DNA of 64,000 nucleotides from a virus. Taxonomy: Duplodnaviria > Caudoviricetes. The stretch is from IMG/VR virus record IMGVR_UViG_2788499822_000003, positions 3,818 to 67,817 of that record. The stretch is one strand, 5' to 3'. Below the pieces are notes generated by a model that made no database searches, had not been told where the DNA came from, and saw only the letters and a program-made list of their open reading frames with translations. The position numbers were made by a program, and so were the translations under genes. Of this stretch, positions 1-62,826 are shown piece after piece; positions within the stretch are counted from its first letter, which is position 1, and every line of letters begins with the position of its first letter.

Positions 1-161
1 TTATCATTTGTGAGATATTTAGCGCCTGAGGGATAATCAGCGTGGCCGTAATTGCCCATAGTGATGACGACGTGACCGAGAATTGTGTAATGCTGTGCCA
101 CAATTTCGAACGCGTCTTTAAACCGGCTGGATCCGCAGAGTGTAATTATCGTAGCCATCAT
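1..161 (-). CDS. Partial (runs off left edge) Rossmann-like protein, nucleoside 2-deoxyribosyltransferase/DUF4406-like
   Basis: Manual translation MMATIITLCGSSRFKDAFEIVAQHYTILGHVVITMG...; ITLCGSxRF start typical of this family; ATGA overlap with upstream gene. Confidence 0.45.
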   Translation of the reverse strand, partial: MMATIITLCGSSRFKDAFEIVAQHYTILGHVVITMGNYGHADYPSGAKYLTND

Positions 162-898
162 TTCCCCTCCGCGCTGGTGGATGATGGGGCGGCGCCGAGC
201 ATAGCTTCGTAAATAACAGATGGACTATTACCTCCTGTTTCCTCCATGTAGCGACGTGCTGCTGTGCCGCCTGCCTTAATCATTGACCGCGTTGCGGTTG
301 TCGGCATTAATTTCCACCCATCCGGCACCAGGCTTGCTACGGGCGGGATAATTCGTTTTAGCGCTTCCCGGAACTGTTCAACATATTGCTCCGTAGTCGA
401 TCCCCAACAGTTAACCAGGCATTCTTCGTCCGGTTCTTCGTCCGGATAATCTTCGTCCGGCTCACCGGGAACCATGAAAAATTCTCGCTCAATTGCATGC
501 AGGTATTCAGCGAAACGTCGTGTATTTTCCACATTGCAAATGAGAGCCGCCGGCGTGCGGGCGCGTTTGCCGATGCCAAATAAATCATAAAGTCTGGTTA
601 GCGTCTCATATGCTGGGGGCTGGCTTGCTGCGGGCGGACCGAACACTGGAAACATTCTTACAAAGTTCACTTTTGAATAGGGAAACATTGCATCATAGGG
701 ATATTTTTCCGGTAGCTCATCCTCATGAATCCAGCCAAGAGGCTCATCCGTCAGCGCGGCAAGGGCTGCTCTGGCAATCTCGCGATTTAAAATAAACCCC
801 TCTATCAGCTCGCGATTCATTGAGATATTTATTTTTTCCAAATCATCAATGGATTTAATCATGTGCTGGCACTGTTCAATCAGCTTTTGCCTATCCAT
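158..898 (-). CDS. Ead/Ea22-like modular phage accessory protein
   Basis: Start moved to MDRQKLIE; N-terminal KLIE...ALAALT motif shared with the two upstream genes. Confidence 0.6.
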   Translation of the reverse strand: MDRQKLIEQCQHMIKSIDDLEKINISMNRELIEGFILNREIARAALAALTDEPLGWIHEDELPEKYPYDAMFPYSKVNFVRMFPVFGPPAASQPPAYETLTRLYDLFGIGKRARTPAALICNVENTRRFAEYLHAIEREFFMVPGEPDEDYPDEEPDEECLVNCWGSTTEQYVEQFREALKRIIPPVASLVPDGWKLMPTTATRSMIKAGGTAARRYMEETGGNSPSVIYEAMLGAAPSSTSAEGK

Positions 899-2321
899 TA
901 TTTTTGTCCTCCGCGCGGTCAAGACGTTCGATTTCGGCGATGATAAGCGCGCCGGCTTTGATTAAGTCTCGGCGCGGATTGGTCGGTTTCCACCAACTTT
1001 CTTCCCAAGGCCAGAAGTTCAGATGTGGGTTGTCTGTATATTCGATGTCTTCATCCCACGGCGCTAAAGCGGCATGTAGGGCATACTCGCCAGCGGCAGC
1101 GGCCAGTTCTCCATTTTCGTGCCTATCATCATGCTCCGGCGTCCAGCCCTCGGCGGTAATCTGGCGCTGACGCTCAGCTATGACGTCACGGATTGCGGCG
1201 CTGTCTGGCACCGCGATAACAGGCTGCTTGGCGAGCATGGAAGCGCGGCAGGCGTTCCAGGCTCCGAGAGCTAACTGGCGTCGCGCGATATATGCATGCC
1301 ATTCATCAGATAAATATCGTGGTTCGGTAAAATTGCCATCCTCATCGGATTCGATACCTATAAACCAACTCTCAAAATTATCCGGCATGGCTGGCGTTGT
1401 CGGCGTCCAGCGCGCTGCCTTCAGCTCTTTTAATTGCCCATCGAGATTTTCGCAGCGGTAACGCAGCCGTTGAGCTTTCCCCACCAGTTTCTTATGCTCG
1501 TCGTGCAGTTCTCGGTAGAAGCGCATAAGAGCGTCATATGGTGTTATCGGCTGGACGTCCGACAGTTTTCGCAGCCACACTGCAGAGGGGCCTTCTTCGG
1601 TATCGTGGACAGAGACCAGAAACCAGCCGTCGCCTTCGGGCGGTTGAGGGTTCCAGACGCTGCAATCACAGTCCAGGCTTTCCCAAGCTACGGCCTCCGG
1701 GCTACCTGGCTCCAAATCGTCTTCCATGAGCCGAGCGACGCATTCGACGCCGTTGACCTCAAGCCACACATCGAATTCGACACGCAGCGCGTCTTCTTCC
1801 AAATCCGGGATATAATCAGGATGCGACCACCAACCGTTTTCATCGCGCTGCGGCTCCATTGGCTCGATACGCTGGTTGGTGAGTGTTGCCTGCGTCACGC
1901 TGGCGGGTGACGGGGCGGCGGCGAGCAGAGCTTTAACGCGACGCATCATGTCTCTGTGCTTCGCCGAGGCGATGCTGTATTCGTTTGAGTCAATATCCAT
2001 TTCATATTGATGCATTGCATCAACCATTTCGCATAGAATGGAACGCCACTCATCCGGCACCAGGCTTGCTGCGGGCGGGGTAAGGTAAAAATCATGATCG
2101 CCTGGCGAAACGTGATGATTAAGCGCAGATGCGGTTATCGTTTTGCCAGTGCTCCGAACGAAGCCGTCTGCCTCAGCGGTAAGCGCGGCCAGGGCGGTCC
2201 GGTAAACGGCAATTTTATTGCTATTTTGCTCCGTCAGTCCGATCCATTGCATTTTGTCTGCGATTACCACCATTCCTTCGAGCATGGAGCGGGTATATTC
2301 AATCAGCTTTTGCTTACCCAC
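891..2321 (-). CDS. Multi-domain Ead/Ea22-like phage accessory protein (476 aa)
   Basis: Long ORF with overlapping neighbours; contains common phage modules PQRDENGWWSHPDY and ERQRQITAEGWTPEHDD. Confidence 0.65.
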   Translation of the reverse strand: MGKQKLIEYTRSMLEGMVVIADKMQWIGLTEQNSNKIAVYRTALAALTAEADGFVRSTGKTITASALNHHVSPGDHDFYLTPPAASLVPDEWRSILCEMVDAMHQYEMDIDSNEYSIASAKHRDMMRRVKALLAAAPSPASVTQATLTNQRIEPMEPQRDENGWWSHPDYIPDLEEDALRVEFDVWLEVNGVECVARLMEDDLEPGSPEAVAWESLDCDCSVWNPQPPEGDGWFLVSVHDTEEGPSAVWLRKLSDVQPITPYDALMRFYRELHDEHKKLVGKAQRLRYRCENLDGQLKELKAARWTPTTPAMPDNFESWFIGIESDEDGNFTEPRYLSDEWHAYIARRQLALGAWNACRASMLAKQPVIAVPDSAAIRDVIAERQRQITAEGWTPEHDDRHENGELAAAAGEYALHAALAPWDEDIEYTDNPHLNFWPWEESWWKPTNPRRDLIKAGALIIAEIERLDRAEDKNNG

Positions 2322-2976
2322 GATCCACCCCCTGCGCCGCTCTCAACGAAGTGAGAATTCGGGCTGCTATTCTGTCTAACATATCTGCGCCGTCAGCAGT
2401 GAACATGACATCTTCGGCGGTTTCGCGCGCCATCTGTTCTAACCGGCTGGTGGCTGACTTTGAAGGCTGAATGGCGGAAGATATAGCGACGCGGCAGGAT
2501 TCCGGCGGAGTGATTCCGTTTATCTGATCGCCCTCAGTAACCAGGCGAATAAGCATAGCCAGGAGCTGCGTTATTTCATCTTCTACGTTCTGCCATGGCA
2601 TTCTGTTTTCGGCGTAATGGACGCCAGCCTGGACAACCTCCCCAGCTTCCTCCGCCACTTTAAGTAGCACATAGTTAGGCTGCGGGTATTTACGCATAGC
2701 CTTGTCTGCTGAAACGCGCGCTCGGCTTACCAAAGATGCAAAGTAATCATCCAGCGCGGCTGGTGGATGTTCTGGACATGGCCAGCGCAAAGAGCCATCC
2801 CCTGACGGGCAAGTACAAGTTGGGTTCTCGACCGGCGTGGCAGTCAGAGCATCCAGTGCAATACGGAATAATTTTTCCTGACAAATATCCACTGGCAATC
2901 TTGTGCGCAATTTTTCTTGGTACTGAATATATTTCTCAGCGAATCCAATTAGCCGTTTTTTTTCATACTTATCCAT
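2314..2976 (-). CDS. Phage protein with MazG-like (all-alpha NTP pyrophosphatase) domain
   Basis: LLKVAEEAGEVVQA...VEDEITQLLAM acidic helix pattern; start moved to MDKYEKK. Confidence 0.55.
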   Translation of the reverse strand: MDKYEKKRLIGFAEKYIQYQEKLRTRLPVDICQEKLFRIALDALTATPVENPTCTCPSGDGSLRWPCPEHPPAALDDYFASLVSRARVSADKAMRKYPQPNYVLLKVAEEAGEVVQAGVHYAENRMPWQNVEDEITQLLAMLIRLVTEGDQINGITPPESCRVAISSAIQPSKSATSRLEQMARETAEDVMFTADGADMLDRIAARILTSLRAAQGVDRG

Positions 2977-3259
2977 GATTAGGCACCTCGCATTCGCATA
3001 TTTCACCAAGCGCATAAGCTAAAGGTGAGGGAGCATCAGCCGGGTGCAATTGATCAAAAATGCGCTCAAAGGTTTTATTGCCCGATTTGATACCGGCAAC
3101 TTTATCTTTCACCCATTCAATCTTGCCAATTCTGGTAGTTATCCTAAATGAGTTGACCAATTCCTTTTTTATGGCGAAAACGACATTATCGCCAACGGCA
3201 AAATTATCCTTATTGGGAGTAATAAAGTTGCCGCAAATAATGCACCGGTATTTAGACAT
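2969..3259 (-). CDS. Hypothetical phage protein with Cys pairs
   Basis: Start MSKYRCIIC, overlaps both neighbours, CxxC and CxC motifs. Confidence 0.6.
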   Translation of the reverse strand: MSKYRCIICGNFITPNKDNFAVGDNVVFAIKKELVNSFRITTRIGKIEWVKDKVAGIKSGNKTFERIFDQLHPADAPSPLAYALGEICECEVPNHG

Positions 3260-3869
3260 TGGCCACCGCCTGTCCATTGAGCTGATATGCCACGGCCATC
3301 TGTTCAGCATCGTTCATGGCATCATGTAGTGAATTGTGTTTGACCATTGCAAAACATGGCTGGTGGTCTTTGAGATAGCCCCGGGCGCTGTGGGACATTG
3401 CATCGATATAAGTGCGCACGTCTCGTTTGCCGTTGTAGTTCCATGGGCATTCCATCCCGCACATGCGATAAGCATGTTCCAAGATGATTCCGTCAAAATC
3501 GGTACCTCTGAAAAAAATGCGCGCATCGCGGTGCTGCGCCACCCAACTGCTCAAATTAAGCAGTTGGGTTTCCAGCGTTTCCCTCTCTCCCACAAGTGCA
3601 GCGCGGGCGCCGGCACCCTTTTTGTACCACCATTGCTGTGTTTCACGGCTCACAGAACGGCAGCGCATCAACTGATCGAATGTATCGACAAGACCATAAA
3701 ATGATTGTTCAGAATATTGAGCACTTTCTGAATTCTGCGCGGTCATTATTATTGCCGCCTGGGTTTCAGAGAGGTTTTTAATATCGAATGCAAACGCGCC
3801 GATTGATAAAATAACGGCGGAGGGCTTTGTATCGAATGTCTCAATATCAATCGTGATATTGTTGATCAT
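3252..3869 (-). CDS. DEDDh 3'-5' exonuclease (phage RNase T/Exo VIII N-terminal-like)
   Basis: IDIET, GTDFD and HNSLHD motifs; GGAG RBS before MINNITIDIE. Confidence 0.8.
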   Translation of the reverse strand: MINNITIDIETFDTKPSAVILSIGAFAFDIKNLSETQAAIIMTAQNSESAQYSEQSFYGLVDTFDQLMRCRSVSRETQQWWYKKGAGARAALVGERETLETQLLNLSSWVAQHRDARIFFRGTDFDGIILEHAYRMCGMECPWNYNGKRDVRTYIDAMSHSARGYLKDHQPCFAMVKHNSLHDAMNDAEQMAVAYQLNGQAVANV

Positions 3870-7533: not shown

Positions 7534-7541
7534 GGTGATAT

Positions 7542-8030
7542 ATGGACCGGGACGATTTGGAATTTGATGTTAATTATTCTTATTTCCTCGAAAGAATGAA
7601 TCACACACTTCTGACAAGGATTGATAAAGGAATAACTCTTGTTTTAATCGTCATGGGTTTTTCAGTATTTTCACCCTATAGCAATATTTTTATATTTGGC
7701 GTCATTGTGGCTTTTCTCTCCGTGGCTCAACTTGTTTATCAGTTCGGCCAAGAGGCTGGGCTTTCAAAAGAGCAAATGCGTCAATACAAGCGTTTGCTGG
7801 TCGAAATGCCGAGTCTTGATACTGATGAATTGCGGGCGAGATACCTTAAAACCCAAGACGCTGACAGCAATCCATGGAAATCACTGGAAGAAGCTGCGTT
7901 TAAACGCACATGCATAGCCCTTAGCCGAAGTGACGATACTAAGCTTTCATGGAAGCAGGGCGTAATTGCATGGATAGCTGGTGATCTCCCTTTATACAAA
8001 GGAAAAATCGATGGGAAAGCCAGTGGGTGA
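7542..8030 (+). CDS. Two-TM membrane protein, SLATT-like; candidate superinfection exclusion or Abi
   Basis: GAGG RBS; two hydrophobic helices followed by a helical cytoplasmic region; oriented opposite to the pL operon. Confidence 0.6.
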   Translation: MDRDDLEFDVNYSYFLERMNHTLLTRIDKGITLVLIVMGFSVFSPYSNIFIFGVIVAFLSVAQLVYQFGQEAGLSKEQMRQYKRLLVEMPSLDTDELRARYLKTQDADSNPWKSLEEAAFKRTCIALSRSDDTKLSWKQGVIAWIAGDLPLYKGKIDGKASG

Positions 8031-8475: not shown

Positions 8476-9501
8476 TTAATCTTCAAAAAGGTAATTGTAC
8501 TCGCCCGCAGCCATCAGCTCATCATCATAGGTTATTCCATTACGTTCAACGATTTGCCGTTTTTTGTAAAGGGCATATTCCTGTCTAGCGTGTTCAATGG
8601 CTTCGTCTTTTATGTAATCGGTATAGCCGGGCAGAACATCATAATCGTTAAGAGTTAGGAGCCTATCAAGTTGTTTATGAAGCGACTGCATGGTCATATT
8701 TTTCCCACGAAGTGCAGCTGACTCTGCATACAACAAAAATTGCTCAGAAAGTAAATGAAGTTTATAGATTTCATCTGGCTTAAGGTAATTCTTTCCAATT
8801 ATTATTTCGGACATGGTGGGAAATGTACCTTTCATAGAATACAATCCCATATTATCGGCTGTATGGTCTGCTCGATCTTGAATCAGTTTTGAACTAGTTA
8901 ATCCCGTTATAGCATGGTGGAATTTGTCTTGAAGTAACGCATAAAAAGATCTGACTTCTTGTGCCTTCGGGTCATAGTCAGAGGCGCTAATTTTAAAACA
9001 TTCTCTAACTTTTTCATAAACTTGCTTTTCGCCAGCCCTCAGAGCTCGTACTTGTGCGGCGAGTTCATTTAGTTTTTCTGGAGATTCACGAAGCAAGGTT
9101 TCATTAATGAGATAGCCTTGTTCAAGATATGCTCTGAGTGTTTTATTACCCCACTGACGGAATGCAATTGCTTTCTTAGCATTAACACGAAACCCCACAG
9201 AAATGACAATATCCATATTAAAATGGCTTATTGTTCTGCTAACTGATCTTTTACCCTCATTTTGAACTAGTCGGAATTCCCGACAGGTTGATATTTGTTC
9301 AAGCTCACCATCTTTATAGATATTTGAAATATGCTCGATGATAGTCTGCCGCTCAACTCCATAAAGTGAAGCAATTTCTTTAGTAGTTGCCCAAATTTCT
9401 TCTGATTCTTGATGATATTTGAAATCTATGATCTGATTATCTTGATTGTATTGAACAATACTTAGCGGTCCATTTGATTCATCGTTTTCATCGCCTGCCA
9501 T
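8476..9501 (-). CDS. rhuM: RhuM-family (virulence/DNA-binding) protein in the immunity region
   Basis: IWATTKEIASLYGV, CREFRLVQNEGKRSVSR, FNMDIVISVGFRVN, FRQW, KNYL motifs. Confidence 0.8.
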   Translation of the reverse strand: MAGDENDESNGPLSIVQYNQDNQIIDFKYHQESEEIWATTKEIASLYGVERQTIIEHISNIYKDGELEQISTCREFRLVQNEGKRSVSRTISHFNMDIVISVGFRVNAKKAIAFRQWGNKTLRAYLEQGYLINETLLRESPEKLNELAAQVRALRAGEKQVYEKVRECFKISASDYDPKAQEVRSFYALLQDKFHHAITGLTSSKLIQDRADHTADNMGLYSMKGTFPTMSEIIIGKNYLKPDEIYKLHLLSEQFLLYAESAALRGKNMTMQSLHKQLDRLLTLNDYDVLPGYTDYIKDEAIEHARQEYALYKKRQIVERNGITYDDELMAAGEYNYLFED

Positions 9502-9614: not shown

Positions 9615-10346
9615 TCATCCGTCAATATCGCGCTTCGACTCAACGTCATCAGCTGATATGAACCGGGTTGATTTCAAAATACCCGAAACATAATGCACTT
9701 CGTCAACATCACTCACAGCCATGGTGATTGGTGGATGGGCATTGTTTATACTGGTAAATTGATACAGGCCATCACGCGTGTAGTTGAGAATTTTGATCAT
9801 GTTATGACCTTCATGTGTCCTGACAAAGACTTCATCACCTGGGTGGGTCTTCGTGTTCGGCTCAATGACAACGAACTCGCCTGACTGAATTCGTGGCCAC
9901 ATGCTGTCGCCTTTGACACGAACACCGTAAGCATCCACATCTGGGCTGTATATCCGCAACCATCCAGCGTGAAACTCAAGCATGTCAATAGAACCATCCA
10001 TTCCAAGGATTGCCTCGCCTTTAACCGGAATGACGCCTTCCTTGGGAGAACCCATGACTTCAACACTATCTTGTATATTTCCTGATGAGAAGCCTGCCAT
10101 TTCCTTTGCTAAATCAGGGCTAAAATCAGCAACACCAACTTTCAAAATTTTTGCAAACTCCAATGCACGGCTGAGATTTAGAGCGTTTTTGCCTGACAAA
10201 ATCTGTGCCACAGCGCTTTGAACCACGCCTAAATCGTGGGCAATGGATTCTTGTGATAGCCCAAGCTCTTTTTTCTTAGCCTCATAGATCGCTTTTAAAC
10301 GCTTAGCGTCCTCGACCTGGGTGGCTGTTAAAGGTTTCTTTTTCAT
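9615..10346 (-). CDS. cI: CI repressor (HTH plus S24 peptidase)
   Basis: Lambda-like N-terminus MKKKPLT...LSQESIA; GDSM catalytic Ser, IKIL Lys; divergent from cro. Confidence 0.95.
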   Translation of the reverse strand: MKKKPLTATQVEDAKRLKAIYEAKKKELGLSQESIAHDLGVVQSAVAQILSGKNALNLSRALEFAKILKVGVADFSPDLAKEMAGFSSGNIQDSVEVMGSPKEGVIPVKGEAILGMDGSIDMLEFHAGWLRIYSPDVDAYGVRVKGDSMWPRIQSGEFVVIEPNTKTHPGDEVFVRTHEGHNMIKILNYTRDGLYQFTSINNAHPPITMAVSDVDEVHYVSGILKSTRFISADDVESKRDIDG

Positions 10347-11302: not shown

Positions 11303-11497
11303 ATGAACAGTGTAACTAAAAACGCTGGTCTACCGCAAATGCGTTGTAAGTCTGTTGCTGGTGGACAAAACCCCGCGGCCTTTCGCTATGAAGTCATGGT
11401 CATGGGGCTGTGGATCCCAAGCAATTACCAGTTCGCCCGATGGGTAGTGGAAGACGGGCACAAGCTATTGAGAACGGGCGGCCGCCGTCATGAGTAG
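11303..11497 (+). CDS. Hypothetical phage protein
   Basis: Short ORF coupled to the replication gene. Confidence 0.5.
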   Translation: MNSVTKNAGLPQMRCKSVAGGQNPAAFRYEVMVMGLWIPSNYQFARWVVEDGHKLLRTGGRRHE

Positions 11498-12536
11498 GAT
11501 ATTTGATGTTATTAAATCCATGTCAGGGCAGGGGAATAGCATCACGATCCCAGTGCCGTACGTGGATTTTTTCGCCGGCGACCAACAGCCTCATGTCTTA
11601 GGCGCGATTCTTAATCAGCTGGTGTTCTGGTCTGGTAAATCGGATCTGAATGATGGCTGGTTTTACAAAGAGCATGCCGAGCTCGCGAGTGAAATTCATG
11701 GTGTCAGCCCTCATCAAGTTTACCGCCTGGTTAAAAAAATCCGTCATTTGTTACCCGGTGTTATTGAAGTAGAGCAGCGGCAGGTAAATGGCACGAAAAA
11801 GACACATTACCGAATAGATGGAGAAGCATTAATAGGCCTGATCTTCCCGGAATTGCAGGGAATCACGGAATCGCGAAACGGGAATCACGAAATCGTGAAA
11901 CCGGTATCGCGGGATCGTGAAACCCATATCGCGGAATCGCGAGACCCTAATCACGAGATCGTGAAACCTATTCTCTATACAGATCAATACACAGATCTAA
12001 ACAAACAGATCAAAGATCCTTCGTCGGAGAATTCTGGCGAATCCTCCGATGCGTCTTCTGAAAAAGAATTTTTAAAAGTACATCCGGAGGCCGTGGTGTA
12101 TAGCCCCAAAGGCAGCAAATGGGGAAACGAAGAGGATCTGCGCTGCGCGAAATGGATATGGAGTCGGATTATCCGGCTTTATGAGCAGGCGGCGGAAACG
12201 GACGGCGAGCTTGTAAGCCCCAAAGAGCCTAATTGGACAGTCTGGGCGAATGAGGTCCGCATGATGCGGATGCTGGACAACCGGAATCACCGGCATATCT
12301 GCGAATTGTTTGGCCGTGCCAACAAAGACCGGTTCTGGTGCAAAAACATCCTCAGCCCGGCGAAGCTGCGCGAAAAATGGGACGAGCTTGTCCTGAAGCT
12401 TCCCGCTGCAAACACAGGCACATCAGCCCGAAGCATAACCCCTCCCACCGGACAGACACCGCCAGGATTCATGAGTGCGGCGGAATTTGTCGCCCAACAT
12501 CCAATACCTGATGGAGCATTCGATGATGACGACTGA
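11490..12536 (+). CDS. Phage replication initiator (O-like)
   Basis: N-terminal wHTH-like region, internal iterons, C-terminal FWxxNILSPAKLREKWD motif; followed by DnaC-like gene. Confidence 0.85.
   Translation: MSRIFDVIKSMSGQGNSITIPVPYVDFFAGDQQPHVLGAILNQLVFWSGKSDLNDGWFYKEHAELASEIHGVSPHQVYRLVKKIRHLLPGVIEVEQRQVNGTKKTHYRIDGEALIGLIFPELQGITESRNGNHEIVKPVSRDRETHIAESRDPNHEIVKPILYTDQYTDLNKQIKDPSSENSGESSDASSEKEFLKVHPEAVVYSPKGSKWGNEEDLRCAKWIWSRIIRLYEQAAETDGELVSPKEPNWTVWANEVRMMRMLDNRNHRHICELFGRANKDRFWCKNILSPAKLREKWDELVLKLPAANTGTSARSITPPTGQTPPGFMSAAEFVAQHPIPDGAFDDDD
11861..12020 (+). repeat. Phage replication origin: five 22-bp iterons plus an AT-rich ACAGATC repeat tract
   Basis: Units start at 11861, 11883, 11905, 11927, 11949 with a TCRCG-N4-CGYGA palindromic core; three ACAGATC copies follow. 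Confidence 0.8.
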
Positions 12537-13263
12537 CTTGCTCGCTCGCTTTCGCCTGGCTGCCCTTAAGCCAGCCTATATTCAACCGCGGTTCAAGACC
12601 GTCGAAGAACTAATGGAGTGGCACCGGAACGAAGAGTTAAAAACCGCTCGTGCCGTGACGATTCAAAATCGGCAGCGCCGCTTGGAAAAGATCATCGGCC
12701 GATCAGGGATTTGCCCGCTGCACAAGGACTGCACTTTTGCCAACTACACGGTGGAATGCGAGGGGCAGGGCAGAGCGTTGGATGCTGCCCGGACTTACGC
12801 AACGGAATTCGGCAAGACGCATGGCGGTTTTATCTTCTCCGGAAGCGTAGGGACTGGGAAAAATCATCTGGCTACAGCCATCGCTAAGTACCTCATCAAG
12901 CGAAACAAAACGGCCATGATCATCACGGTATCGGAATTACTGACTAATTTCCGGGCCACGTTCGACAAAGGCAGCGCCGTGAAAGAATCGGCCCTGATGA
13001 AAGACATTTGTGGCCTGGATTTGCTGGTGCTCGATGAGGTTGGCCTGCAGAAGGGCAGCGAATGGGAAATCAACCTGCTGACACAAATTGTAGACCGCCG
13101 CCAGCTGCAGCTTAAACCCACCGGGATGCTCACGAACTGCACTGAAGCTGAACTCATGTCCATTTTGCGTGAGCGAATTATGGATCGCCAACTTTCAGGC
13201 GGGGTTTGGGTGGAATTCAACTGGCCCAGCCAACGCAGCAAAACCAGGGGGAAAAAGGCATGA
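12523..13263 (+). CDS. DnaC/IstB-like helicase loader ATPase
   Basis: Walker A GSVGTGKNH, Walker B LLVLDE. Confidence 0.9.
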   Translation: MMTTDLLARFRLAALKPAYIQPRFKTVEELMEWHRNEELKTARAVTIQNRQRRLEKIIGRSGICPLHKDCTFANYTVECEGQGRALDAARTYATEFGKTHGGFIFSGSVGTGKNHLATAIAKYLIKRNKTAMIITVSELLTNFRATFDKGSAVKESALMKDICGLDLLVLDEVGLQKGSEWEINLLTQIVDRRQLQLKPTGMLTNCTEAELMSILRERIMDRQLSGGVWVEFNWPSQRSKTRGKKA

Positions 13264-14684: not shown

Positions 14685-15476
14685 ATGGCAAAAAATTCTG
14701 TAGACGTCTATGGCGCCAGCGGTAAAACCAACGTCTTAAAATTTGCGCCGGAAGCTTTGCATTTGGTTGATGATCCAACGCACCCGCTCTATGACGAACG
14801 TATCCATCTGCCGCTGGACGAGGCTATGGTCCTGAACATCATGAACCAGGGTGTCATTGAGCCGATCGTTGTCTGGAAGGACAAGGAAACCGGTCAGGTC
14901 TGCGTTGTTGATGGCCGGCAGCGCGTTAAGCACGCCAAGGAAGCCAATGTACGCCTGCAACGTGCCGGAGAGTCACCGCTGTTTGTCCCTGGGGTTGTGC
15001 GGGACGGTTCCGCTCGGCGCATGCAGGAAGCCATGGTAAGTGCTAACGAAATACGCAGACCGGATACTCCTCTCGGGCGTGCAAAAAAAATGGCTGACAT
15101 GTTATCGCGTGGCAATGATGAAGCTGACCTGGCTTTGTTTTTCGGCATCGGCATTCAGACCGTCCAGGCAACAATTTCCCTCTTACATTGCACTCAAGCG
15201 GTTCAGGATGCTGTCGAGTCTGGACAGATTACCGTTGGCCACGCTCGTCAATTGGCAGAACTCCCGCCGGAAGTACAGCGCGAAAAAGCCCAAGAGCTCG
15301 TTTCTGTTGCCCAGGAGACAAAAGGGCATGAAAAGGCACGGCGCCAGCGTGCTGTACTTGGAGAAGTTCGCCCGCGTATAAAGTCCCGTAAAGAAATCAC
15401 CACCGCACTTGCTTTAGCTACAGGCGAATATGCTGCCGCCCTACAATGGGTACTTGGGGAAGGGGATGCGGCATGA
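14685..15476 (+). CDS. ParB-like nuclease/HTH domain protein
   Basis: GVIEPIVV, VVDGRQRV ParB motif followed by an HTH. Confidence 0.8.
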   Translation: MAKNSVDVYGASGKTNVLKFAPEALHLVDDPTHPLYDERIHLPLDEAMVLNIMNQGVIEPIVVWKDKETGQVCVVDGRQRVKHAKEANVRLQRAGESPLFVPGVVRDGSARRMQEAMVSANEIRRPDTPLGRAKKMADMLSRGNDEADLALFFGIGIQTVQATISLLHCTQAVQDAVESGQITVGHARQLAELPPEVQREKAQELVSVAQETKGHEKARRQRAVLGEVRPRIKSRKEITTALALATGEYAAALQWVLGEGDAA

Positions 15477-15697
15477 AAGAAATTAATTTCCCTTGCGAAA
15501 CGGCCGTTATTTTCCGCGACACAATTTTCCTCATCAGACTCCAGGGTAAATCTGATTTGTGCCAGCAGATGGAAATGGCTACAGGCTGGTTTAAGCGCTG
15601 GTTCTCCGCGCCAGAAGATGAAGTGAAAGCCGCGTTGTTTGTGAGTTTTGGAGGTTTGTATCTCGACTATAAGCAGACGATGGAGCGTGCCGCATGA
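15473..15697 (+). CDS. Hypothetical phage protein
   Basis: ATGA-coupled on both sides. Confidence 0.5.
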   Translation: MKEINFPCETAVIFRDTIFLIRLQGKSDLCQQMEMATGWFKRWFSAPEDEVKAALFVSFGGLYLDYKQTMERAA

Positions 15698-16752
15698 GCT
15701 ATCAACTGTTTGTCGGCGACTGCATCGACTCAATGCGCGCCCTGCAGGAACAGTCCGTGAACTGCTGTGTGACCAGCCCGCCATATTACGGCCTGCGCGA
15801 TTACGGCGTTGAAGGCCAGATTGGCTTGGAGCAAACGCCAGATGATTACATTGCCCGGCTGGTGGCTGTGTTCCGTGAAGTCCGGCGCGTGCTGCGCGAT
15901 GACGGCACGCTGTGGGTGAACATGGGGGACAGTTACGCCACCACTTCAACTTACAACGCTCCCAGAACGTCCGCTGGCACTTTTGGCAGGGTCGCCGGTT
16001 CCCGCCAGCCGGCCCCCAAAATTCCTGCCGGGATTAAGGCAAAAGACATGCTGGGTATCCCCTGGATGCTGGCGTTTGCCCTTCGCGCCGACGGCTGGTA
16101 TCTCCGCCAGGACATCATCTGGCACAAGCCAAACCCCATGCCGGAGAGCGTCCGTGACCGCTGCACAAAGGCGCATGAATACATTTTCCTCCTGAGCAAA
16201 TCGCCGCGGTATTTTTTCGATCATGAAGCCATGAAAGAGCCAGTGCAGTCGGATAAGGGCAACGCCAACAGCTTCAGGGGGGGGGCGTACGTGAATAATT
16301 CCACCTTTGATAATTCAACAGGCGGGAACCGCACGGTCACCGGCAACACCCGGTCCCGCCGCGATTCCTTCAAACGCGACGGCAGCAAGCGCGAGCAAGT
16401 CTTCCCCGGCCAGACCGCGGGCACACATCGCCCCGGTAGGGACGAATCGGCGTGGGATATCGGCATGCGCAACCGTCGCGACGTCTGGAGTGTCGCAACA
16501 CGGGGGTATCCTGGCGCGCATTTCGCCACTTTCCCGCCGGCGCTGATTGAGCCCTGCATCCTGGCCGGCTGCCCGGCGGGAGGAACAGTACTGGACCCCT
16601 TTGGCGGCAGCGGTACAACCGCCGGGGTGACGCTGGCCCACGGACGCAAAGCCATTTTGTGCGAACTGAACCCCGAATATGCCGCGCTGGTGCCGGAACG
16701 CATCGATCAGATTGTTGGCGCAGGCATTAAGCGTAAGGATTGTGCAGCATGA
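15694..16752 (+). CDS. DNA amino-methyltransferase, beta class (likely N4-cytosine)
   Basis: Motif IV TSPPY precedes motif I DPFGGSGTT. Confidence 0.9.
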   Translation: MSYQLFVGDCIDSMRALQEQSVNCCVTSPPYYGLRDYGVEGQIGLEQTPDDYIARLVAVFREVRRVLRDDGTLWVNMGDSYATTSTYNAPRTSAGTFGRVAGSRQPAPKIPAGIKAKDMLGIPWMLAFALRADGWYLRQDIIWHKPNPMPESVRDRCTKAHEYIFLLSKSPRYFFDHEAMKEPVQSDKGNANSFRGGAYVNNSTFDNSTGGNRTVTGNTRSRRDSFKRDGSKREQVFPGQTAGTHRPGRDESAWDIGMRNRRDVWSVATRGYPGAHFATFPPALIEPCILAGCPAGGTVLDPFGGSGTTAGVTLAHGRKAILCELNPEYAALVPERIDQIVGAGIKRKDCAA

Positions 16753-17615
16753 ACCATTATTGCGAAGCACTGGAACAGCTCCGGCGCAAGTCCGCCCATA
16801 AGCTCAAGGAAATAGGCGACCAGTGGCGCACACCTGACCCGCTGTTCTGGGGAATTAACGCCATGTTCGGCCCGCTGGTGCTTGACCTGTTCGCCGACGA
16901 GAGCAACGCAAAATGCGAAGCCTACTACACCGCCGAGGATAACGCGCTGGTGCATGACTGGTCTGAGCGTCTGGCTGACCTAGGTGGCGCCGCTTTCGGT
17001 AATCCGCCGTATTCCCGCGCCAGTCAGCATGAGGAGCAATACATTACCGGCATGGTTCACATCATGGAACATACCATGGCGATGCGGGAACGTGGAGGCC
17101 GGTACGTGGTACTCATCAAAGCAGCCACGTCGGAAACATGGTGGCCGGAGCACGCCGACCACATTGCATTCATCCGGGGCCGCATTGGTTTTGATGTTCC
17201 CACCTGGTTTAAACCGGCGGATGCGCAGCAGGTACCGACCGGAGCTTTCTTTGCCGGGGCGATCGCCGTCTTCGATAAAACATGGACCGGTCCGGCAATT
17301 GGGTACGTCAATCGAGATGACCTGATAGCCCGCGGCGAAACTGCTCTGGCGCAGATGCGCTGGATGGCGCCCCGTTTCGTTCAATCACATATCCAGGCTC
17401 CTGAATTTGACCCAATACCGGAAATGGCCAACCGAGTATGGCCGGCCGAGGTCCATTTTCTGTTCGACCAGGTCCCAGCCGCCGGCAGTCTTCCGGCCGA
17501 GCTGCAAAACAAAATCCGCAGCCACATAAACCGCATGAAACTCGACGGTATAGCTACTGACGCCATTATCCAGCAGACCATTAAATTAACCACAGCCATG
17601 GGAGCAACAGCATGA
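16749..17615 (+). CDS. Phage N6-adenine DNA methyltransferase (Dam-like)
   Basis: WRTP, LDLFA and NPPY motifs. Confidence 0.88.
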   Translation: MNHYCEALEQLRRKSAHKLKEIGDQWRTPDPLFWGINAMFGPLVLDLFADESNAKCEAYYTAEDNALVHDWSERLADLGGAAFGNPPYSRASQHEEQYITGMVHIMEHTMAMRERGGRYVVLIKAATSETWWPEHADHIAFIRGRIGFDVPTWFKPADAQQVPTGAFFAGAIAVFDKTWTGPAIGYVNRDDLIARGETALAQMRWMAPRFVQSHIQAPEFDPIPEMANRVWPAEVHFLFDQVPAAGSLPAELQNKIRSHINRMKLDGIATDAIIQQTIKLTTAMGATA

Positions 17616-19978
17616 GGGAAATCATCGTTGATAATTTTGCCGGTGGCGGTGGCGCATCGACGGGCATTGAAATGGCGACCGGCCGCAGTGTGGATATTGC
17701 GATTAACCACGACCAAAACGCGATCGATATGCATATGACAAACCACCCCGACACGTTGCATTACTGCGAAAACGTGTTTGACGTTAATCCCGTTGTTGCC
17801 TGCGGCGGCCGGCGGCCTGCCCTGGTCTGGTTCTCGCCTGATTGCCGCCATTTCAGTAAAGCCAAGGGCGCCATGCCTGTGAAAAAGGAAATTAGAGGGT
17901 TGGCCTGGGTCTCTATTCGCTGGGCACTTGATACCCGTTTTCGTGTTGGTGTACTCGAAAACGTTAAAGAATTCAGAACCTGGGGGCCACTTTTGACCAT
18001 GGCTGACGGCACACATAGACCAGACCCGGCCCGGGCGGGCGAAACGTTTGCCGCATTCGTGGCGATGCTGACTACCGGCATCGCGGCAGATCATCCGGCT
18101 CTGGACGAATGTTGTGAGGTTTTGGGTATCGCATCGGATAGCGACGACCGGCTCCGGCTCATTGCTGGCCTGGGTTATAACGTCGAATTTAGGGAATTAC
18201 GCGCCAGTAAACTGGGAACGCCGACAATTCGGGAAAGATTCTTCATGGTGATGCGCTGCGACGGTCGCCCGATTGCGTGGCCGAAACAAACGCATGGTGA
18301 CAGAAAATCGCCAGAAGTACGAAGCGGCAAATTAAAGCCCTTCCGTACCGCGGCGGAGATCATTGACTGGAATATCCCAAGCAAGAGCATATTCGAGCGC
18401 AAAAAATCTCTCGCCGACAATACCCTGCGTCGGGTTGCAAAAGGACTATGGCGCCATGTCCTGACCAATGCCGAACCGTTCATTGTCGGCGTGGGCGGAC
18501 GCATGGGTCAATCACCTGAACGAAGCGTACTGGAACCGATGCAGACCGTCACCAGTAAAGCGGATTCCTGCCTGGCGCAACCGGTGTTTGCTCCTTTCAC
18601 CGCGGGTGCTGGTGGGCCTGAATATAGTGGTAAACCGGCCGCAGTCGATCAGCCGTTCGGAACGCTTACCACCGAAAATCACCGGGCTGTTGTAGGGCCT
18701 GTGCTGGCGCCGTTTCTAAATGAACATGCCAATGCCAGTAATCAGCGAACTATGCCGGTTGACGAGCCCATGCGCACACTCTGTGCCCAGGTTAAAGGCG
18801 GGCATTTCTCAGTTGTCGCGCCATCGTTGGTTTCCCTTCACGGCACCAGTGATGCTCATTTGGTCGGCCACGATATAGATCAACCGCTCTCAACAATTAC
18901 CGCCGGTGGCGGACATCATGCTCTTGTTGGGGCCGAATTAGTGACAGCACACATCCAGCGTGACATGGGAAATAGCGTAGGGCATGGCGCCGATGAACCA
19001 TTGGCTACAATCACTGCGGGCGGCGGCGGAAAAGCTGCACTGGTTGGTGCCCACCTGATAACAATTGGCTATGGAGAACGCGAAGGCCAGCAGGCGCGTG
19101 CCCAGGACATCAATGCGCCGCTGGGGACGGTTGTTGCTGCGAACAAACATGCTCTGGTGGCCGCACATCTGGCCCACTTAACGCACCACGGCGACCGGCC
19201 CGGTACCACTCCGGCAGATCCGCTGCCAACGGTAACGGCTGCGCACCGAGGCGAACAGGCGCTGATATGCGCCAATCTGGTAGACATGGGGCACGGTGAG
19301 CAGTGCGGTACTGGCGCCAAGCGCTGGAGTGATGGCGCCCGCTCTCTGGATACGCCACTTAACACGGTAACCGCCAGTAGCGTGCCGAGCGCGTTAACAT
19401 CTGCATTTTTTGAACAGGCTAACGGCGGGTTTTACGATGGCGATGGCCACGCGGCCGACGCTCCGATGTCTACGATCACGTCGGCCGGTAGCAATCAACG
19501 GCTGGTAACAGCCTACGTTGTCAAATATTACAGTTGCGGAGGACAGTCTCAGGGCGTCGATGAACCAGTGCATACTCTCACGGCCAAAGCCCGGATGGGC
19601 CTAGTGCAAGTTATCAAAGTGCCGATCGATTGTTTGTCCCAAGAACATCGTGAAAAAGCGCGCCAATGCGCGCAGTTGCTACATAAATACCTGCCCGAGC
19701 ATTTCCCCGAACCGGCTGACATGGTTTTGATGAGCTATCGCGGCATCTGGTGGGCCCTAGTTGATATTACGCTGCGTATGCTGCAACCGCCTGAACTCTA
19801 CGGCGCCAATGGTTTCCCATCGTGGTACGTCATCGATATGGACTACAAGGGCAAGAAATATTCAAAAGAGCAGCAGGTGGCCCGCTGTGGCAACGCCGTA
19901 CCGCCGCAATTCGCCGAAGCCCTGGTGCGGGCCAATCTACCTGAGTTGTGTGTGGTGCGAGAAGAGGTGGCAGCATGA
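17612..19978 (+). CDS. C5-cytosine DNA methyltransferase with long repeated insertion
   Basis: FAGGGG (I), SPDC (IV), ENV (VI), RERF (VIII), GNAV (X); multiple PLxTIT repeats. Confidence 0.9.
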   Translation: MREIIVDNFAGGGGASTGIEMATGRSVDIAINHDQNAIDMHMTNHPDTLHYCENVFDVNPVVACGGRRPALVWFSPDCRHFSKAKGAMPVKKEIRGLAWVSIRWALDTRFRVGVLENVKEFRTWGPLLTMADGTHRPDPARAGETFAAFVAMLTTGIAADHPALDECCEVLGIASDSDDRLRLIAGLGYNVEFRELRASKLGTPTIRERFFMVMRCDGRPIAWPKQTHGDRKSPEVRSGKLKPFRTAAEIIDWNIPSKSIFERKKSLADNTLRRVAKGLWRHVLTNAEPFIVGVGGRMGQSPERSVLEPMQTVTSKADSCLAQPVFAPFTAGAGGPEYSGKPAAVDQPFGTLTTENHRAVVGPVLAPFLNEHANASNQRTMPVDEPMRTLCAQVKGGHFSVVAPSLVSLHGTSDAHLVGHDIDQPLSTITAGGGHHALVGAELVTAHIQRDMGNSVGHGADEPLATITAGGGGKAALVGAHLITIGYGEREGQQARAQDINAPLGTVVAANKHALVAAHLAHLTHHGDRPGTTPADPLPTVTAAHRGEQALICANLVDMGHGEQCGTGAKRWSDGARSLDTPLNTVTASSVPSALTSAFFEQANGGFYDGDGHAADAPMSTITSAGSNQRLVTAYVVKYYSCGGQSQGVDEPVHTLTAKARMGLVQVIKVPIDCLSQEHREKARQCAQLLHKYLPEHFPEPADMVLMSYRGIWWALVDITLRMLQPPELYGANGFPSWYVIDMDYKGKKYSKEQQVARCGNAVPPQFAEALVRANLPELCVVREEVAA

Positions 19979-20733
19979 TGATCCATTATCACGGTGGACC
20001 AATAACCCCTGATACATGTGCGATTAAAGCCTGGAGAGCGCGCCACGCTTTCATCTCATTCGTTAACGCTGGTCAACTCGGCCTAGCGGCTGAAATTTGT
20101 CAGTCATTTGCAATTGATAACGGCGCATTCAGCGCATGGAAACGGGCTGGAAAAAACAAAATAGAGTGGGCTGATTATTATGCGTTCGTTGAGCGCTGGA
20201 AAAACCATCCTGGTTTTGATTTTGCCATTATCCCTGACGTTATTGACGGCGGCGCTGTGGAGAATGATGCGCTGCTTGAAGAGTGGCCACACGGTAAATT
20301 TTTCGGCGTGCCTGTCTGGCATATGAATGAATCAGACGACCGTTTTATCCGGCTCTGCCATGAGTATCCGCGAGTGGCTATCGGGAGTTGCGGTGAATAT
20401 GATGTGCGCCGACCGATGCTGGCAGTCACACGAATGAAAGACATCATCCGACACATTGTAGATGTCCACGGCCAACCGATCACGAAGTTGCATGGACTCC
20501 GCATGCTAAACCCTGAGATTTTCACAAAATTGCCGCTGTCTTCAGCGGATAGCACAAACGTCGCGCAGAACATAGGGAAAGACTGCAATTGGAAGGGCAC
20601 CTACCAGCCACAATCGAAAGAAACCCGTGCCAGCATTCTGGTAGAGCGCATTGAGTCAGCGAACAGCACTGGCGCCTTGATTTACTGCGAGCAACGGGAT
20701 CGGTTTAGCATCCAGTTGCCGCTGGAGGTATGA
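19975..20733 (+). CDS. TGT/DpdA-like TIM-barrel protein, candidate base-exchange enzyme
   Basis: IDNGAFS, IPDVI, PVWH, KLHGL and SADST occur in the order of the conserved motifs of TGT/DpdA-like proteins. Confidence 0.55.
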   Translation: MMIHYHGGPITPDTCAIKAWRARHAFISFVNAGQLGLAAEICQSFAIDNGAFSAWKRAGKNKIEWADYYAFVERWKNHPGFDFAIIPDVIDGGAVENDALLEEWPHGKFFGVPVWHMNESDDRFIRLCHEYPRVAIGSCGEYDVRRPMLAVTRMKDIIRHIVDVHGQPITKLHGLRMLNPEIFTKLPLSSADSTNVAQNIGKDCNWKGTYQPQSKETRASILVERIESANSTGALIYCEQRDRFSIQLPLEV

Positions 20734-21209
20734 ACTTGAGTGACGAATCCGATTTGCCACCTGATGACAGTGATAATGTGCTGGTATTCACCAGGCGGTT
20801 TGACGCTAATGCTGACATTACAGAAATGCGAAATTTCGTGAAGGCACCGGACGCAAAAAGCAAAAATCGGTGGTGTACCCACGCCAAAATTTTGGTTGAT
20901 GATCATCTTCGCCAATTAACCTGCCGGCTATGCGGAAAAGTCATTGATCCATTTGACTGGATAAACTCTGTCACGGATGGAGAGACGAAAGTTGACTGGG
21001 AGCTGCAAACGTTACGCCGAGAGATTACCGATCACCGCAGCGGGTTGGAGAAGATTAAACGAGAAGAGCTTAACTGCAGGGAGAGGGTTAAAACCCTGCA
21101 GTTCAAACTCAGCGACCTTAACGCGGAAATCTATAAGGCCAATAAAGAATTGGCATTTTTGACTGAACGGATTGGACAAGTTAAGGCATTAAGGGGGAAA
21201 AACTCATGA
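20730..21209 (+). CDS. Hypothetical Zn-ribbon plus coiled-coil protein
   Basis: CTH...CRLC motif, C-terminal heptads. Confidence 0.6.
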   Translation: MNLSDESDLPPDDSDNVLVFTRRFDANADITEMRNFVKAPDAKSKNRWCTHAKILVDDHLRQLTCRLCGKVIDPFDWINSVTDGETKVDWELQTLRREITDHRSGLEKIKREELNCRERVKTLQFKLSDLNAEIYKANKELAFLTERIGQVKALRGKNS

Positions 21210-22216
21210 GGGCATTGTTAACCCCATTAATTCAACGTGAACTCAACTTAGTGCTATTTCGCCCGGGCACTGAACTGCTGCCGCTGTTTATGTCCGGCCG
21301 CGTGTTGATCAGTAACGAACCGAATTTTATGAAATCACTGCCCGCCGGCGCGCTGGTGGATGCGCAACAGACATTAGCCGAGGATCCGACATTGACCGGA
21401 TTTTTCACTGATGAGCGCGTCATTGCTGCTGCAGGTCAAGTAGATCGATTGGAGTCCTGGCTGCAGCAGCGTGATGCCGGGTGCCAGTGGCCAGATAAAG
21501 ATTTCCATATGACCGAAATGACGTCGCTGCGCTATGGTAAAGGTGCGGTCCGGCTATGTTGGCATCACGATCATAAATTTCGTGGTCTGGCGATGGACAG
21601 GTTGGGCGAGATTGCGCGACAGAATCTCGCAGAATGGATTCTTGATACCGTGCGCATCGCTTTCCAATTCCCCGAGCATCATCAAATTACCCTGCCGGAG
21701 CTCTGCTGGTGGGCTGCGCAGGAAGACCTGATCCAGGCTATTCCACAAGGCTCGGCCCGGCGGGTACTCAAATGGCGTCCACTGGAAACACCGTCCGGCG
21801 TCATGCACGAATCAGATATCGAGCCAATATATTCAGCCACGGATGTGCTTGTGGAGCAGGCTAAGCCTGTGCTCGCGCTGGCAATAGACCCTGAGCCGCC
21901 TGAGTCGTTCATGCTCCGGCCGAAACCGCGCCGTTGGGTGAATGAAAATTATACCCGGTGGGTAAAAACACAAATTTGCGCCGGGTGTGGAAACCAAGCC
22001 GATGATCCGCACCATATCACCGGTTACGGCCTTGGAGGAATGGGTACAAAACCACATGATTTTTTTGTTATACCGCTGTGCCGGCAATGCCACAACGAAT
22101 TACACAGAGATACCCATGCATTTGAGGAACGGCATGGTAGTCAGTTAGAAATGCTGGTGCGCACTCAGGACCGGGCCCTGTCGCTTGGTGTGATCAGTAC
22201 AGGCAAATTAAAATAA
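21206..22216 (+). CDS. DUF968 (YdfU-like) protein with C-terminal HNH-like Zn domain
   Basis: LCWHHD, TLPELCWWA, CAGC..DDPHH, PLCRQCH motifs; typical position before Q. Confidence 0.82.
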   Translation: MRALLTPLIQRELNLVLFRPGTELLPLFMSGRVLISNEPNFMKSLPAGALVDAQQTLAEDPTLTGFFTDERVIAAAGQVDRLESWLQQRDAGCQWPDKDFHMTEMTSLRYGKGAVRLCWHHDHKFRGLAMDRLGEIARQNLAEWILDTVRIAFQFPEHHQITLPELCWWAAQEDLIQAIPQGSARRVLKWRPLETPSGVMHESDIEPIYSATDVLVEQAKPVLALAIDPEPPESFMLRPKPRRWVNENYTRWVKTQICAGCGNQADDPHHITGYGLGGMGTKPHDFFVIPLCRQCHNELHRDTHAFEERHGSQLEMLVRTQDRALSLGVISTGKLK

Positions 22217-22226
22217 GGGGAAACCG

Positions 22227-22664
22227 ATGCGCGACATTCAAACGGTCCTGGAGTGGTGGGGAGGATGGGCAGCTCAAAATAATGATAGCGTCGATTATTC
22301 GCCTATAGCCGCCGGGTTTAAAGGGTTGCTGCCGGCAACAAAACGAAGCCGCCCCTCATGCAGTGATGATGATGGTCTAATAATGAATTCAGTCATGGTG
22401 AAACTAAAACAGAGCAATCCATATTTCCACCAACTTATCATCGCCTACTATGTTCTGCGGCTCCCGCTACGCACTTTGGGTAACAAACAGGGAATTTCAC
22501 ATAACCAAGTACTTAAGCGTTTGCAGTCTGCTGAGGGCTTTATTGACGGATGCCTAGCAATGGCTGAAATAACTTTGGAAATGGACAGGTATTGCCAAAA
22601 AGAAAATGTTTATGAGCCGGTAAAAAAACGTTGTGTAATTACAAAAAGCAATTTATTGTGTTAA
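22227..22664 (+). CDS. Q: Late antiterminator Q
   Basis: MRDIQTVLEWWGGWA...IAAGFKGLLP...CSDDDGL...AEGFIDGCL. Confidence 0.88.
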   Translation: MRDIQTVLEWWGGWAAQNNDSVDYSPIAAGFKGLLPATKRSRPSCSDDDGLIMNSVMVKLKQSNPYFHQLIIAYYVLRLPLRTLGNKQGISHNQVLKRLQSAEGFIDGCLAMAEITLEMDRYCQKENVYEPVKKRCVITKSNLLC

Positions 22665-62118: not shown

Positions 62119-62826
62119 TTACACGACAGGGTTTTCGATCCGCTTAATTATCGACTCGCCATCGTTATGAATGTTGCCGACAGCGCGGCCGACAGGGTGA
62201 AACGTAAACTCATCGGCGCCAATCAAATACTCGTGCGCCAGCTCCTCGGCGCGTTCCGGCGTAGTCTCGGGTGACATCCATTCGAGTGAAGCTTCTCGCG
62301 TCATGACCAGCGGCCGCCTGTCGTGAATATCAACCAGACCCTTATCGCTCGCAGCTGTGACAATCACAAAGCCGTCGTCATCTGGCGCATCCAAGGCATC
62401 GGGATGAAAGCGGCTGATGGCCGCAAAGAAAATCGGCTTCTTGTTTTTGTGATAGATGAAATAGGGCTGTTTAATCTTCACGTTGTCGGGATCTTTCTTC
62501 CATTCATACCAGCCGTCGGCCATGACCAGGGCGCGGCCAGAATTCCATAGCGGTTTGAACATCCGCCCTGTCGCCGCTGTCTCGACGCGGGCATTTATAA
62601 GGGGAGGGCGTCCGCTTTCTTTGGCCCATGCCGGCTGATAACCCCAATGAACGGGATCGAGGTGTAATTTATCCTCGCGCTGGTTCAGCAGCAGAACGCG
62701 GGTGCCGGGCGCAACGTTATATCGACCGATGGGCTCACCATCCAGTGCGCCGGCGAACTCAACGCCAGCGTTCAGGAATTCGAGGTATTCCTCACGCGTT
62801 TCAAACTGAGCAAATCTGCCGCACAT
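62119..62826 (-). CDS. yedK: SOS-response-associated peptidase (SRAP, YedK-like)
   Basis: MCGRF N-terminus, INARVET, GWYEW, IHDRRP. Confidence 0.92.
   Translation of the reverse strand: MCGRFAQFETREEYLEFLNAGVEFAGALDGEPIGRYNVAPGTRVLLLNQREDKLHLDPVHWGYQPAWAKESGRPPLINARVETAATGRMFKPLWNSGRALVMADGWYEWKKDPDNVKIKQPYFIYHKNKKPIFFAAISRFHPDALDAPDDDGFVIVTAASDKGLVDIHDRRPLVMTREASLEWMSPETTPERAEELAHEYLIGADEFTFHPVGRAVGNIHNDGESIIKRIENPVV

Follow-up and report, generated by a model that had tools for sequence, protein, structure and literature searches.

Singleton DpdAs and a new member in a provirus

In the Queuovirinae phages 9g and CAjan, DpdA1 has been validated by experiment as a DNA preQ0 insertase, which exchanges the base after replication: deletion of dpdA from CAjan removes dPreQ0, and the 9g protein alone inserts preQ0 in E. 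coli. In both phages the gene lies within a FolE-QueD-QueE-QueC(-Gat) cluster, and 25-32% of G is modified. Hutinet et al. (2019) also described 76 'DpdA-only' phages without preQ0 or G+ genes, for which host preQ0 or uptake was proposed, and these singletons formed the largest group of DpdA-bearing phages in that survey (PMC6884629). Here we describe a member of this group, encoded at positions 19975-20733 of a 64,000-nucleotide stretch of Caudoviricetes DNA (the window; positions 3,818 to 67,817 of the IMG/VR record IMGVR_UViG_2788499822_000003), directly behind three genes of DNA methyltransferases. The protein is probably a DpdA-family DNA guanine transglycosylase that is fed by the host and expressed together with the phage methyltransferases.

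The singleton cluster was found to be specific to gammaproteobacterial phages, and its functional divergence was left possible (PMC6884629). DNA of two singleton-bearing phages has been analysed: Salmonella phage 7-11 contained dADG at 50 per 10^6 nucleotides (0.02% of G), and mycobacteriophage Orion contained no modification (PMC6884629). Group 3 of the 2019 survey, as listed in its supplementary table, includes the proteins of phages SPN3UB (YP_007011024) and BTP1 (SIU02687) (PMC6884629). These proteins of 251-252 residues are 78% identical to ours over the full length, and both phages are temperate, lambdoid or P22-like, and devoid of preQ0 genes, as is the case here; they differ in the position of the gene, which in our provirus is coupled by ATGA to the end of the methyltransferase genes. 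We found in the literature no later paper testing the temperate enterobacterial singleton clade, the SPN3UB and BTP1 relatives included. A DpdA-only phage supplied with host preQ0 is an already published concept, to which the present locus adds a member.

Gene and conserved residues

The gene comprises 252 codons, from ATG 19975 to TGA 20731-20733; an alternative ATG at 19978, the start used by the database homologues, would yield a protein of 251 residues. All five motifs that an earlier note, made from the sequence alone, had reported for this region are present in the 252-residue translation (DNGAFS, residues 48-53; PDVI, 87-90; PVWH, 113-116; HGL, 173-175; SADS, 190-193), and the DpdA-family open reading frame is real. 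A multiple alignment of 55 full-length family members, reaching down to 33% identity, shows no variation at D48, H173, S190, D192, and S193, while N49, A51, P87, D88, H116, G174, and L175 are conserved in at least 90% of the proteins; the five motifs thus form the conserved core of the family and are not chance strings. Grouped at 90% identity (E <= 0.001), the family falls into 6,827 clusters; at 50%, 770 representatives remain.

The family profile (profile A1) was compared with whole phage genomes and matched 7-11 (E 6.5e-60), CAjan (1.0e-24), 9g (2.8e-20), and Rosebush (3.1e-11). The four matches are exactly the annotated DpdA genes, which in CAjan and 9g adjoin FolE/QueD/QueC/QueE; in the genome of phage nt-1, DpdA2 was not matched by the profile. 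The protein itself matches PHROG 887 with E 6.8e-94.

Examination of the alignments with these proteins revealed a common set of motifs. The 9g and CAjan proteins contain LD(S/N)GAFS, P-x-(W/F)-H, K-x-H-G, and S-x-D-S-(S/T) in common with ours, but they are only 17-19% identical to it and, at 306-317 residues, extend beyond it at both the N- and the C-terminus. The aspartates D48 and D192 have aligned counterparts in 9g, CAjan, Rosebush, and 7-11; in particular, D48 pairs with the Asp of LDSGAFS in 9g and CAjan, and D192 with that of S-C-D-S-S in the same two phages and of S-V-D-S-S in Rosebush. H116 pairs with the His of P-C-F-H and does not vary among the aligned 9g, CAjan, and 7-11 proteins. 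The counterpart of D88 is the Asp of ALDVI in Rosebush and of VPDVI in 7-11; relative to 9g and CAjan, its register is ambiguous, by three residues, with D91 as the alternative. The 7-11 protein (gp032, YP_004782407), likewise a singleton and 33% identical to ours, keeps D48, D88, H116, and D192. It differs in having G in place of D91, and its phage differs in being lytic, with a 90-kb genome, and in carrying dADG, which implies an extra oxidation step.

For the bacterial DpdA (bDpdA) a double-displacement mechanism with three invariant aspartates has been proposed; mutagenesis identified D95 as the general acid/base and D256 as the nucleophile, and D130 and H181 read the base (PMC10164549). 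The proposed counterparts of these four residues are D48, D88, H116, and D192 (Table 1), and, judged from the alignments, the invariant residues of the family are exactly the catalytic set of tRNA-guanine transglycosylases (TGT) and DpdAs.

Predicted fold

The AlphaFold2 model built from the family alignment is an eight-stranded alpha/beta barrel (mean pLDDT 92.3, pTM 0.89). When this model was compared by VIA-align with 48,161 PDB representatives, the top four structures all belonged to the TGT superfamily: Cap10 (9NTN, Z 16.0), archaeosine TGT (ArcTGT; 1IQ8, Z 15.4), bacterial TGT (3UNT, Z 14.4), and DpdA (7UI4, Z 14.3, root mean square deviation 3.2 A over 215 residues, 16% identity), with generic barrels following from Z 13.7. 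Similarly, after the best 1000 chains of a Foldseek search were re-aligned with VIA-align, the top 50 were all of the TGT superfamily (Z 14.6-16.2, root mean square deviation about 3 A over about 215 residues). Among predicted viral structures (BFVD), the matches are phage proteins named queuine tRNA-ribosyltransferase, at 1e-9 to 1e-6, and the nearest named cluster in the ESM Atlas bears the Pfam DpdA annotation (TM 0.80). The TGT/DpdA fold suggested by the earlier note is therefore confirmed by the model and its structural alignment, and no non-TGT fold emerged; the assignment to the DpdA family and fold is solid.

Bacterial TGT, ArcTGT, and Cap10 have the same fold (Z 14.4-16.2 over 215-233 residues) and a D-x-G-(G/A)-F motif around the general acid/base, whereas the zinc subdomain and the tRNA-binding domains of the TGTs are lacking in ours. 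The bacterial DpdA of the S. Montevideo Dpd restriction-modification island (7UI4) has the TGT-like TIM barrel in common with our protein, but it is 413 residues long, carries DpdA-specific insertions, requires DpdB and ATP, and shows no match to ours at the sequence level. Cap10, a component of type IV CBASS, acts on a protein substrate together with the QueC-like Cap9 and a CD-NTase; a QueC-family match is absent from our provirus.

Precursor genes and host supply

The provirus record comprises 67,817 bp and is 100% complete according to CheckV. A Pfam search of this complete provirus detected no QueC, QueD/PTPS, Radical_SAM (QueE), GTP_cyclohydroI (FolE), QueF, or Vut_1/YhhQ, so that the lack of preQ0 biosynthesis genes noted earlier for the window extends to the whole element. 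Since no preQ0 pathway genes are co-encoded, the gene belongs to the singleton group and not to the cluster type of 9g and CAjan. QueC and Vut_1 were likewise absent from all of 40 related virus records, which are mostly proviruses and of which 34 have a completeness of at least 90%. QueC was present in all five examined host genomes of related prophages (Rahnella, Yersinia, Erwinia, Chimaeribacter, and Aeromonas).

Lone DpdAs are able to use such a supply. In E. coli cells producing only the 9g DpdA, or only the DpdA2 of nt-1 or of VH7D, plasmid DNA acquired preQ0 or preQ1 at levels of about 100-3,700 per 10^6 nucleotides; with nt-1 DpdA2, insertion no longer occurred in a queD mutant (PMC6884629; PMC10516641). 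By analogy, provision of host preQ0 or preQ1 to a singleton DpdA, with low-level insertion, appears feasible.

Genomic context in related phages

The neighbourhood of the gene was surveyed in 80 IMG/VR loci of relatives. The DpdA gene behaves as mobile cargo of the early region. It lies in the ea region of BTP1, adjoining eaA/DUF550, after the replication genes in SPN3UB, and near int in phage Eeyore and in a Yersinia prophage; immediately upstream of it in a Serratia prophage is a Lar restriction-alleviation gene, whose end it overlaps. A gene for a C5 or N4/N6 methyltransferase stands near DpdA in none of the 80 loci, nor in any of about 100 related loci in all, and the linkage to three methyltransferases is thus peculiar to this prophage. 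A Dam-type methyltransferase occurs within 800 bp in 7 of the 80 relatives. The earlier note had counted DpdA as a fourth DNA-modifying gene of the operon; at the locus itself the gene is indeed ATGA-coupled to the three methyltransferases, but the linkage is not conserved (0/80). The arrangement fits an anti-restriction theme without constituting a conserved four-gene system.

The most telling neighbour, although a rare one, is found in the prophage of Erwinia sp. S63 (locus L024), where a gene for a 155-residue Vut_1/YhhQ-like membrane protein (7537-8004; E 1.1e-9) overlaps the start of a DpdA gene whose product is 81% identical to ours. This protein is homologous to gp41 of CAjan, the 'preQ0 transporter' of the dPreQ0 cluster (E 3e-6), and the overlap points to a 7-deazaguanine substrate.

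Several further observations were made in the related loci. The Erwinia S63 locus is a rare uptake-plus-insertion gene pair in a temperate phage; Vut_1 is present in none of the 40 other records. A PF04447/eaA-like dATP/dGTP pyrophosphohydrolase domain is encoded within 5 kb of DpdA in 12 of the 80 relatives and adjacent to it (<300 bp) in 7. The PF04447/DUF550 gene stands upstream or downstream of the singleton DpdA, for example in L017 (6504-7001) and L001 (6770-7735) and, among the 12 IMG/VR loci, in L066, L067, and L090. Hydrolysis of the nucleotide pool may be linked to base exchange, or the two genes may merely reside together in the ea region. A DUF968 gene lies downstream of DpdA in 15 of the 80 relatives.

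Two candidate associations were rejected. A conserved methyltransferase-DpdA module is excluded by the distribution given above, in which the Dam type alone recurs. The phrog_1621 protein encoded next to DpdA in our provirus is not a conserved partner: it is unlike the product of the gene downstream of the Yersinia homologue, and no homologue of it is encoded near DpdA in the 80 loci.

Proposed function and alternative explanations

The gene encodes a minimal DpdA, a single TIM barrel of 252 residues, and belongs to the singleton clade, whose members occur in temperate phages infecting Enterobacterales, Aeromonas, and Vibrio. If the enzyme works as TGT and bDpdA do, D192 would attack C1' of the target deoxyguanosine with D48 serving as the general acid/base; guanine would leave and a free 7-deazaguanine base would be put in its place, with D88 and H116 reading the base edge. 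The inserted base is most likely preQ0, and possibly preQ1, since both are intermediates of the host queuosine pathway, and it would have to come from the host pool because the phage makes no precursor. The gene follows the replication genes and precedes Q in a putative delayed-early right operon. Co-translation with three methyltransferases would mean that the DNA of the replicating phage is both methylated and marked with deazaguanine before packaging. The likely outcome is a low-level, sequence-specific modification adding protection against some restriction systems, not a bulk replacement of G. The earlier note had proposed that the phage may hypermodify its DNA with a host-supplied base. 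The identification as DpdA and the lack of precursor genes agree with this proposal, but 'hypermodify' overstates the case, as only 0.02% of G is modified in the nearest tested relative; by analogy with it, low-level, site-specific modification is more likely.

A number of observations weigh against assigning this activity to the protein. It has no match in Pfam (also at E 10), NCBIfam, PADLOC, or the PDB sequences. In particular, the Pfam TGT family (PF01702) matched neither the protein at E <= 10 nor the six-frame translation of the provirus at E <= 1; the PADLOC Dpd models did not match the protein; and the Pfam DpdA model PF23859 found nothing in the provirus at E <= 10. The latter model also missed the control phages 9g, CAjan, 7-11, and Rosebush, and therefore does not cover phage DpdAs; more generally, the blank database searches carry no weight, because the validated DpdAs of 9g and CAjan are equally blank. 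A direct hhalign comparison of the family with E. coli Tgt alone and with a profile of 31 TGT sequences gave E-values of 0.095-0.17, none of them significant, and only the D-x-G-x-F segment was paired as expected. In the comparison with the TGT profile (E 0.14), the best Viterbi local alignment set DNGAFS against DSGGFQ and was not significant. The equivalence of D48, D88, and D192 to D95, D130, and D256 of bDpdA is deduced from the motifs and the order in which they occur, and a queuosine pathway in the host of this provirus is assumed from the hosts of its relatives. Finally, the sole gammaproteobacterial singleton tested, that of 7-11, yielded dADG and not dPreQ0, and the DNA of singleton-bearing Orion is unmodified (PMC6884629).

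Could the protein be a generic TIM-barrel enzyme without base exchange, its motifs being coincidental? A Foldseek search against the PDB gave no match at E <= 0.001 and was led by generic barrels at E ~1e-3 (tryptophan synthase alpha, PdxJ); Cap10 ranked 11th and ArcTGT 24th. In the VIA-align comparison generic barrels reach Z 13.7, so that the margin of the TGT superfamily over them is only about 2 Z units. The structural check proposed in the earlier note is ambiguous if Foldseek alone is consulted, and it is settled by the VIA-align rankings of the same model, which place the TGT superfamily first and fill the whole top 50 of the re-aligned chains. Given also the profile E-values of 1e-11 to 1e-60 to four phage DpdAs, and invariant residues that coincide with the TGT/DpdA catalytic set, such a coincidence is hardly credible. 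It is very unlikely, too, that the protein acts as a queuine tRNA-ribosyltransferase and tunes translation by modifying tRNA of the host or the phage, although its homologues carry this name in PHROG 887 and GenBank and the TGT fold is common to both. Established TGT structures feature a zinc-binding CxCxxC...H subdomain and C-terminal RNA-binding parts. Our protein stops at residue 252 and has only C204 and C237 as cysteines after D192; the absence of both the CxCxxC...H zinc site and a C-terminal RNA-binding part argues against a tRNA enzyme. Moreover, the Pfam TGT model is not matched even at E 10, no tRNA genes were found in the prophage, and the nearest experimentally examined relatives act on DNA; the annotation is an inherited name.

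A more serious alternative, which we nevertheless consider unlikely, accepts a true DpdA family but supposes that the singleton clade has diverged, so that it exchanges or removes another base, acts on a non-DNA substrate, or serves in counter-defence, leaving little or no 7-deazaguanine in virion DNA. This would be in line with the separate clustering of the singletons, for which possible functional divergence has been flagged, and with the trace of dADG in 7-11 and its absence in Orion (PMC6884629), the latter being explained by a host that lacks preQ0. In the structural comparisons Cap10, from a CBASS complex, scored highest (Z 16.0-16.2), and the neighbours of the relatives are often nucleotide hydrolases (PF04447/eaA, 12/80) and not deazaguanine genes. 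On the other hand, the full catalytic set is kept, as in the DNA-acting DpdAs; HMMER ties the family to DNA-acting DpdA1, whereas the family profile gave only chance GCN4 matches among the PDB sequences and no link to bDpdA or Cap10; the provirus has no QueC-like Cap9 partner; and in one relative the gene overlaps that of a YhhQ-like preQ0 transporter. We regard as rather improbable the related idea that the singleton clade is a distinct enzyme instead of a weak version of DpdA1, which either places a rare, motif-specific deazaguanine mark (preQ1 or a base processed further) drawn from host metabolites alone and forms with the co-translated methyltransferases a multi-layer epigenetic shield, or has a non-DNA target, as Cap10 does, and disarms a host defence. 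A host-fed DNA guanine transglycosylase remains our preferred reading of the gene.

Operon and neighbouring genes

The DpdA gene belongs to a chain of overlapping genes extending from 14685 to 22216 (Table 1). Five ATGA junctions were read, which connect the N4/N6 methyltransferase, Dam, the C5 methyltransferase, DpdA, phrog_1621, and DUF968 in this order; as described in the earlier note, the stop codon of the C5 methyltransferase gene (19976-19978) overlaps the start of DpdA. The ATGA from ParB into a 74-codon open reading frame was also read, and the junction of this frame with the N4/N6 methyltransferase gene is deduced from the coordinates of the open reading frames. Three junctions of the chain have the common sequence GCAGCATGA. 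The presence of genes for a CI-like repressor and replication proteins upstream and of Q downstream identifies a lambdoid delayed-early right operon, and the gene layout suggests delayed-early expression of DpdA. A search of sequencing runs for this DNA gave a single DNA data set, a fungus metagenome with a small share (0.12), and no RNA data set.

Table 1. Positions in the window of the DpdA-family gene, its proposed active-site codons, and neighbouring genes
Feature	Position	Strand	Remarks
RhuM-family gene	8476-9501	-	adjoins the CI-like repressor gene
CI-like repressor	9615-10346		upstream of the operon
Replication genes	11490-13263		upstream of the operon
ParB-like protein	14685-15476	+	PF17762 HTH_ParB, E 1.2e-11; first gene of the ATGA chain; ATGA at its stop opens the 74-codon open reading frame
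N4/N6 DNA methyltransferase	15694-16752	+	PF01555, E 3.3e-49
Phage Dam-type N6-adenine methyltransferase	16749-17615	+	PF05869, E 1.5e-41; ATGA junction at both ends
C5 cytosine DNA methyltransferase	17612-19978	+	788 residues; PF00145, E 8.8e-13; PHROG DNA methyltransferase families; ATGA with DpdA
Shine-Dalgarno sequence GAGGTG	19964-19969	+	5 nucleotides before ATG 19975 and 8 before ATG 19978; inside the end of the C5 methyltransferase gene; read from the sequence
DpdA-family gene	19975-20733	+	252 codons
D48 codon (I-D-N-G-A-F)	20116-20118	+	conserved in 55/55; proposed general acid/base, as D95 of bDpdA and D89 of E. coli Tgt
D88 codon (I-P-D-V-I)	20236-20238	+	54/55; proposed base-recognition Asp, as D130 of bDpdA
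H116 codon (P-V-W-H)	20320-20322	+	54/55; proposed base-contacting His, as H181 of bDpdA
D192 codon (S-A-D-S-T)	20548-20550	+	55/55; proposed nucleophile, as D256 of bDpdA and D280 of TGT
phrog_1621 protein	20730-21209	+	159 residues, function unassigned; PHROG 1621, E 4.2e-28; ATGA-coupled to DpdA and DUF968
DUF968/HNH-like protein	21206-22216	+	PF06147, E 1e-72
Antiterminator Q	22227-22664	+	PF06530, E 6.9e-45; marks the end of the delayed-early right operon
UmuC-like Y-family polymerase and SOS-response-associated peptidase (SRAP) genes	60850-62841		right end of the provirus

The C5 methyltransferase has an unusual organization. It matches PF00145 at residues 6-122 only, and its middle part (residues ~300-660) contains nine tandem modules of ~38 residues each, starting at residues 308, 347, 385, 424, 462, 502, 536, 581, and 617. 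Each module has the pattern D/E-x-P-[LMF]-x-T-[ILV]-[TVC]-[AST], after which comes a short hydrophobic stretch ([AL]-[LV]-[VI] in most of them). Judged by this pattern, the modules look like a string of target-recognition-domain-like units; such strings are present in the multispecific C5 methyltransferases of Bacillus phages. This protein may be more unusual than the DpdA itself. The phrog_1621 protein contains a C-x2-C motif and a C-terminal segment resembling a coiled coil.

Implications

The locus represents a clean case of a DpdA co-translated with three methyltransferases, and as such points to an anti-restriction role while leaving the concept of the host-fed DpdA unchanged. Singleton DpdAs abound in the prophages of Salmonella, E. 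coli, Yersinia, Serratia, and their relatives. If they mark DNA with host preQ0 or preQ1, lysogens and virions would carry a cryptic modification, which could affect restriction, CRISPR, and nanopore base-calling, and which newly discovered deazaguanine-sensing defences (GrwAB and the Dag glycosylases, for instance) would target. If, instead, the singleton clade proves to be a distinct enzyme or to act on a non-DNA target, a very widespread gene of temperate phages (>6,800 protein clusters at E <= 0.001) would be a new player in the biology of lysogens.

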